Shown: piece after piece, positions 1 to 26,859 of the stretch
Position numbering within the stretch: position 1 is the stretch's first letter
How the letters are laid out: each line of letters starts with the position of its first letter
Virus record (IMG/VR): IMGVR_UViG_3300017713_000067
Coordinates: 1-26,859 of that record
Direction: 5' to 3' (one strand)
DNA from: a virus
Lineage: Duplodnaviria > Caudoviricetes
DNA length: 26,859 bases
Position numbers and translations under genes: made by a program
The notes under the pieces: generated by a model
Database searches by the model: none
What the model was told of the DNA's origin: nothing
The model's input: only the letters and a program-made list of their open reading frames with translations

Positions 1-131
1 ATGGAGATGATCACGTCAGATATAGTGGAAAAACTTACCACAGAAAGAACGGTAAAATAAAGTATAACGGAAAGTGGCACGAAGAGGGGAGCAAAGCGTT
101 TCCTTGGGAAAAAGCTGCTTATAAAAAATAG
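1..131 (+). CDS. 3' end of a truncated gene; possible zincin-like metallopeptidase
   Basis: Frame starting at nt 3 is open: GDDHVRYSGKTYHRKNGKIKYNGKWHEEGSKAFPWEKAAYKK, TAG at 129-131. The terminal PWExxA resembles the Glu-bearing C-terminal helix of phage zincin-like proteins. Any HExxH motif would lie outside the window. Confidence 0.45.
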   Translation, partial: GDDHVRYSGKTYHRKNGKIKYNGKWHEEGSKAFPWEKAAYKK

Positions 132-135
132 TAAC

Positions 136-435
136 ATGGGATATAAAATGAAAGGCTGTATGTACTCTAAAAAATCACCTTTAAAACAAAAGAAAAAAAC
201 AGTTGTAGGTGAAAACACTGATGAGTTAAAAAGAGATAAAAAAGGTAATAGCTATGCATTAAACATGTATGACCAAGCTGATGGTATAAATAAAGGTGAC
301 ACTATATTTGCTCCTGATTACAAGATACCAACTAGCTATGGTTATATAGAGGGTGGAGATTATGACGCTACGGAAACTAAAAGTAGTAAAAAAAGAAAGA
401 AAGGACCTAGATCTTACAATATAAAAACAAAATAA
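136..435 (+). CDS. small basic hypothetical protein with N-terminal YKMKG...KSPLKQ motif
   Basis: 99-aa ORF tightly packed between neighbours; its first 18 aa align with those of the next ORF. Confidence 0.8.
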   Translation: MGYKMKGCMYSKKSPLKQKKKTVVGENTDELKRDKKGNSYALNMYDQADGINKGDTIFAPDYKIPTSYGYIEGGDYDATETKSSKKRKKGPRSYNIKTK

Positions 436-436
436 T

Positions 437-733
437 ATGACGTTTAAAATGAAAGGGTTTTTATACCCAGGGAAATCCCCGTTAAAACAACAAGGACCTA
501 TACCTGAAAAAAATCCAGATTTAATGAAAGGTGAAATGGAAGGAACGTGGGTTTACAAGGGTAAAGATAAAAACGAAAGAATTATTGATTTAGAAGATAG
601 AGCTGAGTTTGCTTCAAGCGATGCTGAAGGTGCTGAGGGCAAAGAAAAGAAGAAACACTTGGCTAATGCTAAAAAACTTCAACACGAGGCTGATATTATT
701 AGAAACAGAAAGCCAGATAAAAAACAAAAGTAA
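437..733 (+). CDS. small charged hypothetical protein with N-terminal FKMKG...KSPLKQ motif
   Basis: 98-aa ORF; TAATG stop/start overlap with the holin-like gene; shared N-terminal motif. Confidence 0.8.
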   Translation: MTFKMKGFLYPGKSPLKQQGPIPEKNPDLMKGEMEGTWVYKGKDKNERIIDLEDRAEFASSDAEGAEGKEKKKHLANAKKLQHEADIIRNRKPDKKQK

Positions 734-4037: not shown

Positions 4038-4241
4038 ATGGCATATAAACAAGCAGGGTGGTCTCCATTTACAAAGCTAGATGATAAGGCTAGAAAGAAA
4101 GAAATAAAAACTTTCATAAAAAACAACATGGATAAAATGTCTGACGCTGAAATGATGAAAGCTGTTAGATCAAAATCTGATAATAAGACTGAGTACAATT
4201 GGAACGTTAAAACCAAAGAAGTAGAAGCTCATGATTTATAA
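4038..4241 (+). CDS. small hypothetical protein with N-terminal YKQAGWSPFTK motif
   Basis: 67 aa; A-rich leader; TAATG coupling to the next gene; N-terminus is a variant of the motif in ORFs 136 and 437. Confidence 0.7.
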   Translation: MAYKQAGWSPFTKLDDKARKKEIKTFIKNNMDKMSDAEMMKAVRSKSDNKTEYNWNVKTKEVEAHDL

Positions 4242-4831
4242 TGAAAAGCGTTTATAACTTTGTTGTTGAGCCTATTGGTGGTAGATATAATAATACTAAA
4301 AATGTTGGTGATTCTGAATTGATATTAAACACAGAAATGTACAATCACAAGTATGTTAATAGAGAAGCCAAAGTATTATCATCGCCTATAATAACTAATA
4401 GTAATATAAAAGTTGGTGATAAGGTTATATTACATCACAATGTTTTTAGAAGGTGGGAAAATCAGTATGGTGAAGAGAAAAACAGCAGAAGCTATTTTGA
4501 AGAAAATAAATATTTTGTAAATGAAGATCAAATATTTTTGTACAAAAGAAATAAAGATTGGATAGCACCAAAAGAATATTGTTTTATAAAACCAATCAAA
4601 AGCATAGACAACTACGATAATAACAGTGAAAGACCTTGTATAGGTATAGTTAAGTATTCTGTAGAAAAAAGTTTAATTGGTTGTTTAGTTGGTTTTCACC
4701 CTGGTTCTGAATACGAGTTTGTTGTGGACGGACAAAGACTATATAGAGTTTTATCAAATTTAATTACAATAAAATATGAATATCAAGGAAACGAAGAAGA
4801 ATATAATCCTAGCTGGGCAGAAAGCAGTTGA
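4241..4831 (+). CDS. GroES/Cpn10-like co-chaperonin, apparently two tandem domains
   Basis: Domain 1: FVVEP...AKVLSSP...IKVGDKVILH...YFVNEDQIF. Domain 2: YCFIKP...GIVKY...VGFHPGSEYEFVVDGQRLYRV, matching the GroES pattern KVGDxV...EIxIDGxxYLI. Confidence 0.65.
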   Translation: MKSVYNFVVEPIGGRYNNTKNVGDSELILNTEMYNHKYVNREAKVLSSPIITNSNIKVGDKVILHHNVFRRWENQYGEEKNSRSYFEENKYFVNEDQIFLYKRNKDWIAPKEYCFIKPIKSIDNYDNNSERPCIGIVKYSVEKSLIGCLVGFHPGSEYEFVVDGQRLYRVLSNLITIKYEYQGNEEEYNPSWAESS

Positions 4832-9686: not shown

Positions 9687-10814
9687 ATGGAAGAAAACAA
9701 AGACAACGTAGTTGAGGAAACTACACAAGAAAAACAAACAGAAGAGACTCCTAAGATTGATGAGTCTAAGTTTGATAGCGCTGGAGATGACAGTGTTATT
9801 AAAATTGATTTAAGTCAACCACCACCTTCTAGTAAAGAAGAGGTTGTTGAAGAAGAAGTCATTGAAGAAACAGCAGAAGTTGATTCTGTTTTAGAAGAGA
9901 TATCAGAAGATTCTACCGAAGAAGAAGTTGCTGAAGTAGAAGAGCAGATTGAGGAGGTTGTAGCTGAAGCAGAAGCAACGGGTAAACCTTTACCGGAGAA
10001 TATAGAAAAACTAGTAAACTTCATGGAGGAAACTGGTGGTGATTTAACAGACTACGTTAAGTTAAACGAAGACATCAATGAGATGGACGACTCGGAAGTT
10101 TTACACAATTATTATAAAGAAACAAAACCTCACTTGGAAGATGAGGAGATTAATTTTTTGTTAGAAGACAACTTCTCTTTCGATGAAGAGTCTGATGATG
10201 ACAAAGATATTAGAAAGAAAAAAATAGCGTTAAAAGAGCAAGTTGCCAACGCTAAAGCTCACTTGGAAGAGCGTAAATCCAAATACTATGAGGAAATCAA
10301 GGCTGGAAGCAAACTTACGGGCGAGCAACAGAAAGCAATTGATTTTTTCAACCGTTACGAAAAAGAGTCTGAACAAGCGATGGAAGTTCAACAAAGTCAA
10401 GTAGATACTTTTTTAAATAAGACTAATAATCTTTTTAACGACAAATTCAAAGGTTTTGAATATAACGTCGGTGAAAAAAAGTATAGGTTTAATGTTAACA
10501 ATAGAAACGAAGTAAAAGACAACCAAAGTGACATCAACAATTTTGTCAAAAAGTTTTTGAACAAAGATGGTATGATGGATAACGCGGAAGGTTATCATAA
10601 GTCTCTATTTACAGCTATGAACCCTGATGTTATTGCAAACCACTTCTATGAGCAAGGTAGAGCTGATGCTATCAAAGATGGTGTATCAAAAGCCAAGAAC
10701 ATAGACACTAGTGCTAGAGGATCTCACAACGAGATTGAAGTTGGTGGTATGAAATATAGAATTTTAGGCGATGACTCAAACTCTTTAAAAGTAAAAATGA
10801 GAAGTAAAAAATAA
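9687..10814 (+). CDS. capsid scaffolding protein (putative)
   Basis: Very acidic, low-complexity N-terminus and helical core; position between portal and MCP. Confidence 0.7.
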   Translation: MEENKDNVVEETTQEKQTEETPKIDESKFDSAGDDSVIKIDLSQPPPSSKEEVVEEEVIEETAEVDSVLEEISEDSTEEEVAEVEEQIEEVVAEAEATGKPLPENIEKLVNFMEETGGDLTDYVKLNEDINEMDDSEVLHNYYKETKPHLEDEEINFLLEDNFSFDEESDDDKDIRKKKIALKEQVANAKAHLEERKSKYYEEIKAGSKLTGEQQKAIDFFNRYEKESEQAMEVQQSQVDTFLNKTNNLFNDKFKGFEYNVGEKKYRFNVNNRNEVKDNQSDINNFVKKFLNKDGMMDNAEGYHKSLFTAMNPDVIANHFYEQGRADAIKDGVSKAKNIDTSARGSHNEIEVGGMKYRILGDDSNSLKVKMRSKK

Positions 10815-10841: not shown

Positions 10842-12287
10842 ATGGCAATTACAGGCGTACCGGCTACTGGATATACTCCAGCGCCAATCAAACACGCTGT
10901 TACCCAAAACTATATTGACTTCGCTACATTAGGCGCGTCAGATGGTTGGGCACAGCAATACTTACCAGATCTTATGGAAAAAGAAGCTGAGGTTTTTGGA
11001 AACAGAACTATCTCAGGATTTCTTTCTCAAGTAGGAGCTGAAGAATCTATGACTGCTGACCAAGTTGTTTGGTCTGAGCAAGGTAGATTACACTTAGCAT
11101 ACACAGCAACAAGATCTGCTGATGTTGTTACAATTGTTAACGATGTTGACGGAAACGCTGTTGGTGTAAACCACGCAGTACGTGCAGGTGACATGGTTTT
11201 ACTTTCTGACAATAACACTACGGTTAGAGCTTACGTTATCAACGTAGACCCAACTGCTGGTAACTATGCTGAAATTACAGTTAAACCTTATGCTACTATG
11301 GCTGGTGGTGCTGCTGCAAACATGAATGCTACTACATTAGGAACTGCTGGAATAACTTGTTTAGTTTATGGTTCTGAATATGTGAAAGGTTCTGTTGGTA
11401 GAGGCTTATCTAACGAGCCACAATTCAAATCTAGAACTAACAAACCAATCATCTTGAAAGATCAGTACAGCGTGTCTGGATCTGATGCTTCTGCGATCGG
11501 TTGGGTTGAGGTTTCTGGTGAAGATGGTCAAAATGGATACCTATGGTACTTAAAAGCTTCTGGAGATACTAGAGCTCGTTTTTCTGATTACTTAGAAATG
11601 GCGATGTTAGAGTCTCAAAAAGCTGCACAAACTATCACTGCTGCTCAGGTTGGAGCTACTGGTACTATATCTGGTACTGAAGGTTTATTCTCTGCTTTAA
11701 CTACTAGAGGTAATCAAACTTCAGGTATTACTGGTGTTCCGTTAACTGATTTAGCTGAGTTTGACTTAATGTTAGCTGAGCTTGACAAAAACGGTGCAAT
11801 TGAAGAGAACATGATGTTCTTAGATAGAACTACTGCTTTAGCTGTTGATGATATGTTAGCTGCTATGAATTCTTATGGTGCTGGTGGTACTTCTTTTGGA
11901 GTATTCAACAACTCTGAAGACATGGCTTTAAACTTAGGTTTCTCTGGTTTCAGAAGAGGTTCTTATGACTTCTACAAGTCTGACTTTAAATACCTTAACG
12001 ACAAAGGTACAAGAGGTGGTTTAAACGATGCTATCAACAACGTTAGAGGTGTAATGATTCCTGCTGGTGTATCTTCTGTATACGATGAGCAATTAGGTAA
12101 AAACCTAAAACGTCCATTCTTACACGTGAGATACAGAGCTTCTCAAACAGATGACAGAAAGCTAAAAACTTGGACTACTGGTTCGGTTGGCGCTACTACT
12201 TCTGATTTAGATGCGATGGAAATGCACTTCTTATCTGAAAGATGTTTAGTTGTACAAGGAGCGAATAACTTCTTTATGTTAAACTAA
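10842..12287 (+). CDS. major capsid protein
   Basis: 481 aa after the scaffold; visibly biased codon usage (GCT/GGT/ACT/TCT); followed by a strong terminator; WSEQGRLH and GTEGLF segments consistent with an HK97-fold MCP with an insertion domain. Confidence 0.85.
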   Translation: MAITGVPATGYTPAPIKHAVTQNYIDFATLGASDGWAQQYLPDLMEKEAEVFGNRTISGFLSQVGAEESMTADQVVWSEQGRLHLAYTATRSADVVTIVNDVDGNAVGVNHAVRAGDMVLLSDNNTTVRAYVINVDPTAGNYAEITVKPYATMAGGAAANMNATTLGTAGITCLVYGSEYVKGSVGRGLSNEPQFKSRTNKPIILKDQYSVSGSDASAIGWVEVSGEDGQNGYLWYLKASGDTRARFSDYLEMAMLESQKAAQTITAAQVGATGTISGTEGLFSALTTRGNQTSGITGVPLTDLAEFDLMLAELDKNGAIEENMMFLDRTTALAVDDMLAAMNSYGAGGTSFGVFNNSEDMALNLGFSGFRRGSYDFYKSDFKYLNDKGTRGGLNDAINNVRGVMIPAGVSSVYDEQLGKNLKRPFLHVRYRASQTDDRKLKTWTTGSVGATTSDLDAMEMHFLSERCLVVQGANNFFMLN

Positions 12288-22751: not shown

Positions 22752-23204
22752 ATGAATAAAGATATAAAGTTATCTTCAAGAAAGAAAATCTTAGATTTTC
22801 AATCGATGTTAATCAGTGATGCTGATGAGGTTAACATTGTTACTCATCAAGACTCAAAGATATTTCCATTAAAGCATACGTTTGCAGATGGGATATATGT
22901 TAGACAAATGTCTATGAACCCAGGATCTGTAGTTGTTGGAGCAATACACAAACACTTACATGTTTGGTTTTTGTTAACCGGGCATATTTCAGTTGTCACA
23001 GAAGAGGTTACAGAAGATTATATATCACCATGCTACGTTGTTGCAACACCAGGAACTAAAAGAGTTATATACGCGCATGAAGAAAGTATATTTGTAAATA
23101 TACATAAAAACCCTACTAATTCTCAAGATATAGAATGGTTAGAAAAAGAAATAGTAGCTAAAGATTTTAAAGAATATGAAGAATACATTAATCAAAACAA
23201 ATAA
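22752..23204 (+). CDS. cupin-fold protein
   Basis: HTFADGIYVRQMSMNPGSVVVGAIHKHLHVWFLLTGHISV (cupin motif 1) and PCYVVATPGTKRVIYAHEESIFVNIH (motif 2). Confidence 0.72.
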   Translation: MNKDIKLSSRKKILDFQSMLISDADEVNIVTHQDSKIFPLKHTFADGIYVRQMSMNPGSVVVGAIHKHLHVWFLLTGHISVVTEEVTEDYISPCYVVATPGTKRVIYAHEESIFVNIHKNPTNSQDIEWLEKEIVAKDFKEYEEYINQNK

Positions 23205-23207
23205 GAT

Positions 23208-23903
23208 ATGAGTTTTTTACTAGTAGGTGCCGCGGCTGTCGGTGTTGGCGCTGGTGTAGCTAAAGCTATATCTGGTGGTAAAGCCAAGAAAGCTGCAAGA
23301 AAAGAAGCTGCCGCCGCAAAGGCAAGGCTAAACGCTCAAAAAGAAAAATTTAAGCAGTTGGACACGTCTAACCCATATAAAGATCTTCAAAATACTATGG
23401 AGGATCTAACCGTAAACACTCAGGAAGCTGAGTTCGCGGCACAACAACAACAACAAAACCAAGCAAACATATTGCAAAACATGAAAGGGTCTGCTGGTAG
23501 TTCTGGTATTGCTGGTTTAGCGCAGGCTATGGCTAACCAAGGTTCTATGGATGCTCAGAAGTCTGCAATATCAATAGGTAAGCAAGAGTCTCAAAACCAA
23601 ATGCAAGAGAGAAGTATGGCTAGTCAAATACAAAACCAAAAAGCTCAAGGTGATATAATGTCTCGTGACATGGAAAGAAACAAAATATCAACACTAATGG
23701 GTATGGAAGCTGGAGATGTTAGTGCTGCTAACGCAAAGGTAGCTGCTGCTGATCAGAAAATGTGGTCGGGTATAACTGGGGCTGCCGGAGCTGTTACGGG
23801 TGCTTTGACTGGTGGAATGGGTGGTGCAGCTGGCGGGGCTGGTGGAATGCCTCAGATGGATTTCCAAAATCCTTTCTGGAAACAACAACCAGCAACATCA
23901 TAA
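23208..23903 (+). CDS. putative internal virion / DNA pilot (ejection) protein
   Basis: Hydrophobic Gly/Ala N-terminus, Gln/Ala-rich coiled coil, Gly-rich hydrophobic C-terminus; position and composition like P22 gp7. Confidence 0.6.
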   Translation: MSFLLVGAAAVGVGAGVAKAISGGKAKKAARKEAAAAKARLNAQKEKFKQLDTSNPYKDLQNTMEDLTVNTQEAEFAAQQQQQNQANILQNMKGSAGSSGIAGLAQAMANQGSMDAQKSAISIGKQESQNQMQERSMASQIQNQKAQGDIMSRDMERNKISTLMGMEAGDVSAANAKVAAADQKMWSGITGAAGAVTGALTGGMGGAAGGAGGMPQMDFQNPFWKQQPATS

Positions 23904-23916
23904 TAAAATATAAGAT

Positions 23917-25179
23917 ATGAAAAAGAAAACACCTTTAAAACAAATGGATTCTGGTTTAGTAAACGCTTATAAAGAAGCTATGATGTCTGAAGTTCCACGT
24001 GGAGATGCTATGGGTAAAGGAATGGATGCCATAATGGATATGGCTAGTGGAGTTGTAGACAAAGCTTGGCAAGATAAGAACGCTGCTAGGGACAAAGAAA
24101 AAGAAAGAGTAAGACTAGCCAAGGAAAAAGGAGATAAAGTTGCTCAAGCTACTTTAGATATGGGAGGTTCTTTGGGTAAAAGTACTTTTGATAGTTGTTA
24201 CCCAGCTGTAGAGTCTATTCAAGCTGAGTACGATGAAGCGGTTAAAAACAACGATAAAAAAGCTATGGCTATGGCTATGCAGAAACTAAACGAGTTTAGC
24301 GCTACAACAGGTAGTTTAAAAGAGCTTAACAGTGATGTCGCTTTAGCTAAAAAAGAAAACGATTTATCAGCTAATTGCAAGCCAGGTGGAAGAGAAGATA
24401 CTATACTCACGAGTTTTTTAGATGATTCTACGAAAAAAAGAGTTAGTGCCAACGATGATGGAATGCAGATGTTTGAGTATGAAGTCGAGATTGATGGTAA
24501 GAAAGAGTGGGTTACACACGACGATGTTAGCAACATACTTGAGAAAAATAGAACTGACCACGAATCTATAGCTGATGTTAGGGATTTAATAATACAAGCT
24601 GGAGATGCTGCTGATGATGAGAATAGAGCTGGAAAAGAGTTCAATGATTATGACGAGGTTAGGACTACCTCTAAGATGAATACTATAATAAAAAAGGGCA
24701 AACTAAACTCTTTGTTGTATGATGATGTTTTAGAAAATGGAGAGCCTTTTGTTGATGCTATATATGAAAATCCAGAGATAAAAGGTATGACTTACGAGTC
24801 TCTTGGATTAACGCAAAAAGATATTGCTGCTAAGGTTGATACTAATAACGATGGTGTGATACAGGAAAATGAAGCTCAAACATTGCTAGAGCTTGGTCAT
24901 AAGGATATGATTGTTGACGCTTTAATTAACTCTGACAACCCTAACTTTGATGAAGAAAGAACTAGAGGCGTTATGGCTAACTACTTTAGCACGGCTGTAA
25001 AGCAACAATATGGAAAAAATAAAAACAAAGGTAAACAAACAACACAGGTAGATAATGCGGCTGATGGAACTATGTATCAAAAAAATAGTGATGGATCTAT
25101 GTCACCGATGAGCCCAGCAAGCGATCAATTTAAAAACATGACAACAGAAGAGTTGTTAGCTATGTATCCAACAAACTAA
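23917..25179 (+). CDS. putative internal virion (ejection) protein with EF-hand-like loop
   Basis: 420 aa, helical; lies between the pilot-like gene and a very large gene; starts MKKKTPLKQ; contains DTNNDGVIQENE. Confidence 0.55.
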   Translation: MKKKTPLKQMDSGLVNAYKEAMMSEVPRGDAMGKGMDAIMDMASGVVDKAWQDKNAARDKEKERVRLAKEKGDKVAQATLDMGGSLGKSTFDSCYPAVESIQAEYDEAVKNNDKKAMAMAMQKLNEFSATTGSLKELNSDVALAKKENDLSANCKPGGREDTILTSFLDDSTKKRVSANDDGMQMFEYEVEIDGKKEWVTHDDVSNILEKNRTDHESIADVRDLIIQAGDAADDENRAGKEFNDYDEVRTTSKMNTIIKKGKLNSLLYDDVLENGEPFVDAIYENPEIKGMTYESLGLTQKDIAAKVDTNNDGVIQENEAQTLLELGHKDMIVDALINSDNPNFDEERTRGVMANYFSTAVKQQYGKNKNKGKQTTQVDNAADGTMYQKNSDGSMSPMSPASDQFKNMTTEELLAMYPTN

Positions 25180-25186
25180 ATTAAAT

Positions 25187-26859
25187 ATGACTAGAGAACA
25201 ATTAGGAGAGGTACTTCAAAAGATGGCTGCTGATGGACAGCCAAAAGAAAACATGGATAAAGTCGCTGCTCATTACCAGGGCGTTATAGCGAAGTCAAAA
25301 GAAGCAGAAGAAAACCCTCACAAAAACTCAGATGGCACTTGGAAAACAGTTGCCCAAATAGAAGAGGAACAGTTTGGAACAAAAAAAGAAAAAGGCTCTC
25401 AGACGACCGATGCGACTGTAGAGCCTCAAATAGTATCCGAAGGTACGGAATCACCATCGGAAGATGGTTCATCGGAATCACAACCTCAAGGTTATCAGCC
25501 TAATACCCCAATAACAGATGGTGGTTACGAATATAAGTTTGATGTAAACAAAGATGGCTTAGGTGTTTACTATACTAGAAAGGTAGGTGAAAATGACTGG
25601 ATAAACGTTTCTGAAACTCAACCTGGTAGTGCGGCTGAAGTTTCTATAGCTAGTGAGTTTGGGCACGCTGATTTTGATAAGTCCGCATACTTCAAACAAA
25701 AGAAAGAAATAGAAAAGCAAAAAGAAGAGGAGGAAAGAAGAACATCAAACCCTACGTCATTCGCTGATATAGGTATGACTAAAGATTTAGATGGTAGTTT
25801 ACTACAGGGAGATTTTAGGTACGTTTTTGATAAGAATGATCAGAAATGGTACAAACAACCTAAGCATGGTATACCTGTAATGGCTGTTAATCAAAAAGGA
25901 GATGAAGTGTCTGAAGAGCTAGTAAGCCAAATAAACTCTTTACATAATGATGGTCAAGCTTCTTCTATAGGTATTAAAAAAGAGGGTGATATGTCTAGCT
26001 ACCTGTATGCGCCGATACCTCCAATGCCTCTCGATATAGACTTAAACGTTACTTCTAAAAACGATTGGGAAGGAGCATTACACACCCAAATGAGTGGTGA
26101 TGATGCTAACAGGGAATCTATTAGAATAAAATCGTTAGGTTATGATGATGAGTTTGATATAAGAAACACCAAGACTTGGGTTAACATGGAAGAAAGCGCT
26201 TTTGAATCTGCTATTGAAAATGCTTACCCAGGTATTTCTGTAGAACAAACTGGAGCGGGAAACGCTGCTTATATATCGGTTCCTTGGAGTGATAAAAAAA
26301 TATACGTAGATTTAAAACCAGAAGATGGTTTGTTTGGTAGTTCTAATGATGAGGTAGACAAGGTGTTAAGAAATTTTAAAAGAAGATACTTAGAAGAAGT
26401 AGAGTCTGGTAAGATAAATAACTCTTTGTCACAATTACTAAACACTAGAGGCACGGGTGATACATTTGTTGAGAGCGATGTTGTTAAGTTTAATGATATG
26501 GCTAAAGAAATAGATGGTTTAAACTTAAGCGTAACAGAAAAGTTTCAGTACGATGGCGCTGGTGATATGATTGCTGGTTATGAGGTTTTTGCTGGAGGTG
26601 AGACAAAATGGTTTGAAACAGCACCTGAGGTAAACAATTTTATATACGAAAACATGTCTAGCGAAGACGTAGCAGCTATACATGCTCACGAGCTGAAATT
26701 AAAAACAAGCTTAATAAAAGAAAGAGAAACTTATGTAGATGATAAGTACGAAAGCCTTGAAAGAGAAGAAGTTTTAGAGACGTTTTACAAAGACTCATTA
26801 CTACCAACCATGATGTTTGACCTTGGAGAAAGTGGCAACCACAGCGGTATGTCTCAAGA
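25187..26859 (+). CDS. large putative internal virion protein, 5' part (truncated by window end)
   Basis: Absent from the ORF track because no stop is reached. ATG at 25187 follows TAAATTAAAT and reads MTREQLGEVLQKMAADGQPKENMDKVAAHY...GTESPSEDGSSESQ...; the frame appears open to the window end (about 557 codons). Confidence 0.7.
   Translation, partial: MTREQLGEVLQKMAADGQPKENMDKVAAHYQGVIAKSKEAEENPHKNSDGTWKTVAQIEEEQFGTKKEKGSQTTDATVEPQIVSEGTESPSEDGSSESQPQGYQPNTPITDGGYEYKFDVNKDGLGVYYTRKVGENDWINVSETQPGSAAEVSIASEFGHADFDKSAYFKQKKEIEKQKEEEERRTSNPTSFADIGMTKDLDGSLLQGDFRYVFDKNDQKWYKQPKHGIPVMAVNQKGDEVSEELVSQINSLHNDGQASSIGIKKEGDMSSYLYAPIPPMPLDIDLNVTSKNDWEGALHTQMSGDDANRESIRIKSLGYDDEFDIRNTKTWVNMEESAFESAIENAYPGISVEQTGAGNAAYISVPWSDKKIYVDLKPEDGLFGSSNDEVDKVLRNFKRRYLEEVESGKINNSLSQLLNTRGTGDTFVESDVVKFNDMAKEIDGLNLSVTEKFQYDGAGDMIAGYEVFAGGETKWFETAPEVNNFIYENMSSEDVAAIHAHELKLKTSLIKERETYVDDKYESLEREEVLETFYKDSLLPTMMFDLGESGNHSGMSQ

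Follow-up and report, generated by a model that had tools for sequence, protein, structure and literature searches.

The window, by which we mean the whole 26,859-nucleotide stretch of IMG/VR virus record IMGVR_UViG_3300017713_000067 analysed here, has the gene content of a podophage late module, with PHROG matches to terminase, portal and, at the capsid position, a virion structural family, and with the crAss muzzle family found on ORF14904. The features on which this analysis rests are as follows, where h stands for a hydrophobic residue and the two halves of the shared leader are termed head and site.

3 to 131, plus strand: 3' end, cut by the window start, of an HExxH...WE zinc-metallopeptidase-like gene, a candidate processing protease.
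136 to 435, plus strand: ORF136, a basic tagged protein of 99 aa, whose body is a module found in relatives behind other leader versions.
136 to 156, plus strand: head element of ORF136, MGYKMKG, a likely virion-loading signal.
175 to 189, plus strand: site element of ORF136, SPLKQ, a likely cleavage site.
437 to 733, plus strand: ORF437, a tagged protein of 98 aa, whose body is a mobile module inside polyproteins of relatives.
437 to 457, plus strand: head element of ORF437, MTFKMKG.
476 to 490, plus strand: site element of ORF437, SPLKQ.
4038 to 4241, plus strand: ORF4038, a 67-aa protein with a variant head at 4038-4058 and a site at 4062-4076.
9687 to 10814, plus strand: putative scaffold protein, between the portal and capsid genes, with a C-terminal h-K-h-K strand resembling the head core.
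10842 to 12287, plus strand: putative major capsid protein, matching phrog_13704 (virion structural protein), with the capsid role assigned from position and size.
23208 to 23903, plus strand: putative ejection protein 1 (ORF23208), which has no site here, with its role taken from synteny with phi13:2 and elemoA.
23917 to 25179, plus strand: putative ejection protein 2 (ORF23917), with a site (TPLKQ, 23929-23943) but without a head, its role again taken from synteny.
25187 to 26857, plus strand: 5' part of a giant putative ejection protein; the sister-clade gene at this position has a C-terminal peptidase fusion.

The window phage is a podophage related to crAss-like phages and is probably flavobacterial. 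Its TerL is 64% identical to that of MW202828, 45% to Elemovirus, 39% to Cellulophaga phi13:2 and 37% to phi38:1, and the genomes of near-complete relatives measure ~60-68 kb. It probably falls within group 2 of the putative Flavobacteriaceae phages of Nishimura et al. 2017, which are described in the accessible part of that paper as having structural proteins homologous to those of Cellulophaga phi38:1 and as often carrying GroEL (PMC5332604). Chaperonin-like genes were likewise seen by eye in relatives of the window phage, including a separate gene pair that is annotated in MW202828 and elemoA, and the window itself has a GroES-like gene (phrog_13932, 4241-4831) directly upstream of the terminase genes. 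Two other neighbours are a three-transmembrane holin (phrog_3427, PF11351; 733-1125) right behind the tagged genes, and a 150-aa protein (22752-23204) with PHROG tail-fibre labels, at whose position the relatives' gene is annotated as, or resembles, an acetyltransferase.

The first-pass annotation of the window had proposed that ORF136 and ORF437 share an N-terminal peptide, and this proved correct, with 12 of their first 18 residues being identical. Over these 18 codons 9 are identical, 3 differ synonymously and 6 change the amino acid, and the leader DNA is identical at 39 of 54 nucleotides compared with 11 of 30 just upstream. When residues 2-18 were compared across all 325 pairs of the 26 plus-strand ORFs, this pair had 11 identities and the runner-up 5. 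The bodies behind the Q gave no local alignment at E<=100, which bears out the claim that they are unrelated and rules out full-length paralogy of the two proteins. The pattern [ST]P[LF][KT][QK] occurs four times in the six frames of the window, in ORFs 136, 437, 4038 and 23917, each time 4-13 residues past the first Met of the ORF. The last two had been put forward as distant variants; ORF4038 is one, as a homologue with 67% identity over 66 aa begins MAFKMKG, while for ORF23917 only the second half of the leader, TPLKQ, could be upheld and the head is absent. None of the four ORFs had a match in Pfam or PHROG, ORF437 retrieved only unnamed viral clusters under 0.9 from the ESM Atlas, and in the main texts of the accessible literature we found no description of the tag under MAFKMKG, FKMKG or DUF6321 and only unrelated occurrences of SPLKQ. 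Alike N-termini also arise by paralogy, since 5 of 7 sister genomes hold a single ORF pair with 8-15 identical N-terminal residues, which inspection by eye puts down to paralogues or to a contig end that is repeated; by itself the window pair is therefore no proof, and the case rests on relatives.

Among the relatives the head has the consensus M-x-[FY]-K-[ML]-K-G. The exact DNA pattern for MA[FY]KMKG was found in at least 140 IMG/VR stretches (~430 estimated), and the loci among the matches listed encode 162 different proteins with the motif at the first Met in 157, a figure that is partly built into the search pattern. In an unbiased test on 80 loci fetched through a neighbouring gene and not through the tag, with peptidases counted, there were 52 heads in the first 12 residues (11,988 aa) and 6 elsewhere (166,350 aa), which shows that the motif is almost entirely restricted to N-termini in relatives, and 39 of the 80 loci had a tagged ORF. 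Three or four codons are in use for Ala2 and Gly7 of the head across 78 tagged genes (21 genomes), and four-fold sites vary, with no conserved motif beyond A-richness in the upstream DNA. This, along with the synonymous divergence within the window leaders and their poor upstream identity, agrees with the earlier suggestion that selection acts on the peptide and not on the DNA, and a shared DNA or RNA element behind the leader is ruled out. The 20 clade genomes examined have between 1 and 8 heads each, and sister genomes without the peptidase have none. We also observed a second leader type, M-A-Y-[IV]-Q-x-N-N-P-F, before some of the same modules (L127:13031-14703, L134:6323 and L139:5027), which is probably a variant of head plus site, and a small Cys-pair protein of the replication module with a head-like start (G014:63176, minus strand; G009:12113), which is either an exception to the late-gene rule or chance.

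The site has the consensus [ST]-P-hydrophobic-[KN], and its Ser codons are TCN in 38 of 46 cases and AGY in 8. Unlike the head, which is N-terminal, the site recurs within proteins. The body of ORF437 was found in 31 longer homologues, all with a head in the first 30 residues (starts at a second Met included), and these contain 54 internal sites and no internal heads. In 26 of them the body is internal, in 22 distinct contexts, and in 21 of the 22 it follows a site within 12 residues, compared with 1.8 expected at random positions, although the search query included the site, which is a small bias in this count. For 14 hand-picked modules a site was present at 23 of 39 joints against 6.1 ± 2.2 expected, with anchors chosen after the data were seen. 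An automated test over all alignment boundaries gave a weak result that counts against the joint reading (24 of 112 vs 17.2 ± 3.4), many of these boundaries having fallen inside modules, and the first strict joint test had too few joints to be informative (3 of 4 with a site). Overall, 83 internal sites were counted against 35.7 ± 6.2 after shuffling. That the same leader precedes unrelated modules in relatives supports the proposal of a modular tag on interchangeable, variable bodies. Two modules also exist as stand-alone proteins starting M-G, and in polyproteins the same G stands directly after SP-M-K or TP-M-K; as the stand-alone starts coincide with the end of SP-h-K, the predicted cleavage bond lies after the K, give or take one residue.

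Sites are unevenly distributed among the late proteins. In 20 clade genomes, tagged cargo has 16 strict sites against 1.2 expected, while the capsid, portal, ring, ORF12362-like and muzzle proteins together have 1 against 8.7. Opposite-strand genes (2 vs 6.0 expected) and the giant proteins of the stand-alone clade (3 vs 6.0) show no enrichment, scaffolds are at expectation (1 vs 0.8) and none of the 20 major capsid proteins has a strict site, so that in these sequences the shell and scaffold, unlike those of T4, give no sign of cutting at the site motif. A relaxed site within residues 5-40 was found in only 115 of 211 head-tagged cargo proteins.

The gene that ends at position 131 is represented in the window by its last 42 codons, which align with the C-terminus of a peptidase family, including its PWE motif (E 3.9e-16 against the family profile). 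Members are proteins of 100-145 aa encoded by a single-copy gene, and of 94 distinct peptidases 91 have HExxH and 82 a head at the start; only 2 of 68 free-standing peptidases have a leader site. Residues E56, H59 and E97 are invariant and H55 is nearly so. The structural model (pLDDT 81.7) places helices 46-65 and 95-108 behind three strands, and the family therefore has the HExxH helix, the Glu third ligand on a later helix and the preceding small beta sheet expected of a zincin. The nearest PDB sequence is that of the minigluzincin MJ1213 (4qhf; selecase), at a remote similarity (E 5e-4 over 53 profile columns) that does not allow its substrate specificity to be transferred to the clade peptidase. 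Fold neighbours of the model are predicted SprT-like viral models (TM 0.64-0.66) and a sole, weak MPTase-labelled one (E 0.09); NCBIfam returned only two single weak matches for 91 peptidases. By motifs and predicted fold, the gene is predicted to encode a minigluzincin-like peptidase, which shares size, HExxH...E ligands and predicted fold with MJ1213, SprT-like proteins and Wss1 (PMC4559962, accessible part).

Of 31 records from tag or neighbour-gene loci 27 have the peptidase, as do all 21 of those at least 90% complete. It is missing from all 15 sister records, 7 of them near-complete, in agreement with a six-frame profile scan. A quick version of a TerL tree and a FastTree tree from capsid and portal, the latter without phi13:2 and the near-duplicate G034, are both midpoint-rooted and do not show the direction of change. 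The capsid-plus-portal tree has three groups, without peptidase (8), with a fused peptidase (5) and with a free-standing peptidase and tags (21, including the window), for which two changes suffice. Because tag and peptidase coincide with a branch of the tree, their co-occurrence counts in these sequences as one or two evolutionary events and not many. We found the tag in no cultured phage, and the cultured relatives checked (MW202828 as a whole, 50 kb each of phi13:2 and elemoA) have neither tag nor peptidase.

The fused form of the peptidase was examined using a profile search that yielded 664 representatives. Among the best 150 of these are 37 proteins longer than 700 aa, which align with the giant protein closing the structural module. 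Where more than 100 residues precede the peptidase domain (45 distinct cases, most of them with the giant putative ejection protein), a strict site lies no more than 20 residues upstream in 29, with 0.7 expected, and none has a head; where at least 50 residues follow the domain (28 cases), a site lies within 28 residues downstream in 17, with 0.8 expected, although these fusions are related by descent, which limits the weight of the counts. Fusion loci were retrieved by DNA pattern, single-protein queries having given none, and the fusion is present in 25 IMG/VR loci, in one of which it is split over two frames by a frameshift or assembly error (L503; G050:C1:2953-3229, minus strand). In all five near-complete fusion genomes the fused peptidase is the sole copy and there is no ORF with a head. 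In the sequences compared, the peptidase thus comes either with a head or as a fusion, and where it is fused, sites separate it from its surroundings. The equivalence of the gene at 25187-26857 to the fused giant protein rests on gene position and not on direct alignment. As a separate observation, an HExxH string not matched by the profile of the small peptidase was seen in giant putative ejection proteins of the stand-alone clade (G003, G007 and G014); it may belong to another, unrelated zincin domain or be chance.

The giant gene and its two upstream neighbours probably encode ejected virion proteins, a role assigned from where they lie, from labels as structural proteins in phi13:2 and elemoA, and from the crassvirus cargo proteins (PMC10172136, accessible part). 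Of 20 homologues of putative ejection protein 1, five are extended at the N-terminus by a stretch that closes with a site, just ahead of the hydrophobic segment that begins the others and within one residue of the predicted bond. The site of putative ejection protein 2 is present in one of its three homologues.

The tagged cargo set of 211 non-peptidase head-tagged proteins, taken after clustering, has a median length of 106 aa, 17% Lys and a median net charge of +10 per 100 aa, and is low in complexity. Only 1 of 19 tagged or related proteins passed the Pfam cut-off, as DUF6321. The same modules occur without a tag in relatives: the sister genomes G036 and G037 have DUF6321-type ones, and the tag-bearing G009 has two others. 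The suggestion that the cargo consists of host-takeover or anti-defence factors is not borne out, as the bodies are lysine-rich, match no functional family and are also present without a tag in other phages; we saw no indication of anti-defence functions, which single modules might nevertheless have.

Outside the clade, 502 phage records matched the DUF6321 module, mostly T4-like cyanophages, and 10 T4-like and 6 smaller phages were compared. In the T4-like phages Glu stands directly ahead of one module in 6 of 7 cases and within three residues of another in 5 of 5; in P-TIM40 a module follows a CTS-like start, and P-HM1 had no recognisable module start. The six smaller phages have the module beginning at Met without a leader, as the untagged modules of G036, G037 and G009 also do, and the modules therefore do not need the tag. 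Prohead protease gp21 of T4 cuts after L/I-X-E (PMC9026906), and the module starts that follow Glu in T4-like phages, as gp21 sites would, support the site of the clade as a processing boundary. We also noted a DUF6321-type gene between the scaffold and major capsid genes of Pelagibacter phage Ran (L536:392-631).

The putative scaffold and capsid proteins were considered as possible partners of the head. Scaffold tails bind coat protein in other tailed phages, and the C-terminus of the window scaffold (10782-10811) consists of alternating hydrophobic and Lys residues. Scaffolds end in F-K-h-K in 104 of 121 clade sequences and 0 of 34 sister sequences, 32 of these 34 having L-K-h-K/R instead; the F-K-h-K tail resembles the head core, although this link is short and confounded by ancestry. 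When alignments of the capsid protein and of a 32-residue leader were co-folded, the score was 0.00 against a mark of 0.32, which is evidence neither way. The capsid protein N-terminus (10842-10910) has a P-x-P-x-[KQ]-Q/H stretch that resembles the site and is kept in relatives that lack the peptidase. As evidence for a processing site this stretch is ruled out by its presence in peptidase-less genomes, and it may be an older structural motif ancestral to the site, or chance.

What sequence comparison establishes is two elements that differ in position, shuffling of modules, sites at their joints, the motifs and predicted fold of the peptidase, and two forms of its gene. We lean towards the explanation that the leader is in two parts, with the head serving as a virion-loading signal and the site as the cut site of the clade's small predicted zinc peptidase. 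Of its components, proteolysis at the site seems quite likely and the presence of the tagged proteins in the virion likely, whereas a loading function of the head is only mildly favoured, and whether most cargo binds DNA or balances charge is an even call. The head would dock late proteins, the peptidase included, into the assembling prohead, where cutting by the peptidase after SP-h-K would take off the leaders and divide polyproteins into small basic modules, which would stay with the packaged DNA or leave with it. Given a single head on each chain and a site at each joint, several modules could be delivered in one loading event. The predicted products of ORF136 and ORF437 would begin at Q18, and ORF23917 would be trimmed at its site after loading by the ejection-protein route. 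Activation of the peptidase by DNA, as for Wss1 (PMC4559962), is speculation.

This load-and-trim reading is favoured because the head is N-terminal, the leader is under peptide-level selection and the site marks joints; because the fused peptidase lacks the head and has flanking sites; because the free peptidase and heads are present together in the clade and both absent from near-complete sisters; and because sites are enriched in cargo and depleted in shell and tail proteins. It is weakened by the occurrence of modules without a tag and by the lack of a site in many cargo leaders.

We consider it unlikely, though the best of the alternatives, that the site is cut by the peptidase while the head is not a capsid address but a strand that associates with itself or recruits the protease, bringing substrates to the peptidase either in the cytoplasm or once they are ejected. 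The peptidase is where the head varies least (82 of 94) and is the sole tagged ORF in G002, G004, G009 and G011, and cargo heads are confined to the clade with the free-standing peptidase, as this alternative would have it; likewise, the accessible text of Iyer et al. 2017 leaves the timing of processing open between before packaging, in the head and after injection (PMC5512222). However, the head is lost exactly upon fusion to a putative ejection protein (0 of 45), as expected if both deliver the peptidase, and its core matches the F-K-h-K end of the clade scaffolds that the sister scaffolds do not have. Both points speak against this alternative.

A second alternative leaves SP-h-K uncut and treats it as a binding or modification motif, namely an SPKK-like DNA-binding turn, a phosphorylation site or an inner-capsid docking element. 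The histone SPKK DNA-binding motif has basic residues at both positions after S-P. In the leaders the residue after S/T-P is basic in only 1 of 103 and hydrophobic or small in 83, with the next residue mostly K, and the SPKK pattern is thus not seen. The basic, low-complexity cargo, near-tandem site copies a few residues apart in some proteins and the similar stretch at the capsid N-terminus would all suit such a motif, but the site also stands on both sides of the peptidase domain, in acidic linkers as well, and at module starts, which in T4-like phages is the position of Glu, and the capsid stretch is found in peptidase-less genomes too. We therefore regard this second alternative as improbable. 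Least credible, and given only a slight chance, is that the leader is a gene-capture or translation-start cassette recombined from the peptidase gene for strong late expression without sorting, since the clustering of tagged genes around the peptidase gene (in the window as well), the A/T-rich first codons and the existence of untagged modules are outweighed by synonymous divergence alongside amino-acid conservation in the leader, by the retention of the site with loss of the internal head in all 31 longer ORF437 homologues, and by a site on the fused peptidase that the free-standing form lacks.

The proposed load-and-trim leader has its closest likeness in T4, as the first-pass annotation had suggested. 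The T4 CTS is borne by IPI, IPII and IPIII and removed by gp21 (PMC9026906, PMC3012670), and it is bipartite, with an N-terminal targeting part and a C-terminal processing part (PMC9026906, accessible part); the clade leader has two separable elements for which such functions are predicted. A short N-terminal peptide on small, basic, variable and otherwise unrelated proteins is common to both. The two have no sequence similarity, however, with a site of SP-h-[KN] in the clade and L/I-X-E in T4, and the serine protease gp21 has its counterpart in a candidate HExxH metallopeptidase of 100-145 aa. No gp21-type protease was found among the 25 window proteins using PHROG and Pfam, and the scaffold gene follows directly after the portal gene. 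The clade virus is a 60-68-kb crAss-related podophage, and its capsid proteins lack strict sites. Targeting and cleavage have been demonstrated for T4, and here we infer them from sequence. Of the proposed T4-like system, the modular N-terminal tag, the likely processing site and the CTS-like logic stand, while the tag is divided into two separable signals and a gp21-type enzyme gives way to the candidate HExxH peptidase; the leader system works like T4 CTS and gp21 and is not a member of that system, as motif, enzyme class and shell processing differ.

Phages phiKZ, 201phi2-1 and SPN3US likewise use one protease and one short motif for many internal substrates with repeated sites (PMC9026906, PMC7411985), but their enzymes are gp21 homologues cutting after Glu, and the accessible text of PMC9026906 describes no comparable N-terminal head. 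Zincin-like MPTase domains are reported in P1 DdrB and the N4 virion RNA polymerase (PMC5512222) and in phi14:2 gp65 (10.1101/2020.03.07.982082). These have HExxH and a downstream Glu, are fused to large virion-delivered proteins and have been proposed to act in processing (PMC5512222), so that metallopeptidase processing of virion polyproteins is already predicted, although neither source, in its accessible text, describes a recognition motif or a free-standing tagged peptidase. In the clade, by contrast, a motif flanks the peptidase domain and is common to many small proteins. Crassvirus cargo proteins C1 and C2 are comparable in their related tail architecture and in the three-gene block at the ejection-protein position, but the main text of PMC10172136 describes no tag or processing.

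A wider scenario, which we put forward tentatively and think somewhat doubtful, is that the clade independently evolved a complete T4-like load-and-trim system, in which a minigluzincin of roughly 110 aa, having entered the virion at the end of the giant ejection protein, became a gene of its own, the head was copied from the scaffold's capsid-binding tail and then spread to basic modules that other phages load by their own signals. In that scenario, tailed phages would have a maturation metalloprotease with a readable cut motif, forming a minimal, portable tag-plus-protease pair. If the load-and-trim reading is true, capsid addressing with proteolytic trimming would have arisen again outside the T4 and phiKZ lineages using another enzyme class, and sequence alone would reveal which internal proteins are carried by a marine phage group that is abundant and uncultured. 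The site would offer a testable substrate motif for zincin domains long suspected of virion polyprotein processing (PMC5512222; phi14:2 gp65), and the findings suggest a place inside the virion for DUF6321 and related orphan modules, as proteins common to several phage families.

No virion-proteome support for the shared modules was found, the accessible text of PMC12801897 naming no such module, and a module gene of RN05-S is labelled 'structural protein' with the basis of the label not stated. In T4-like cyanophages, polyproteins with phrog_727, phrog_3477 and other labels, function not known, consist of the same basic modules with Glu-ended linkers (L219-L221, L529-L535), and some adjoin ORFs with CTS-like starts; they are probably unrecognised internal proteins. 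Within the clade some tagged proteins are made of many tandem A/S-M-K-L/M-K repeats (L094:10020, minus strand; L148:816 and L154:874, plus strand; G014:9304), often together with K-P-D-x-x-D-x-D-G-D-G, which resembles a calcium-binding loop, and these could be core or scaffold-like material.
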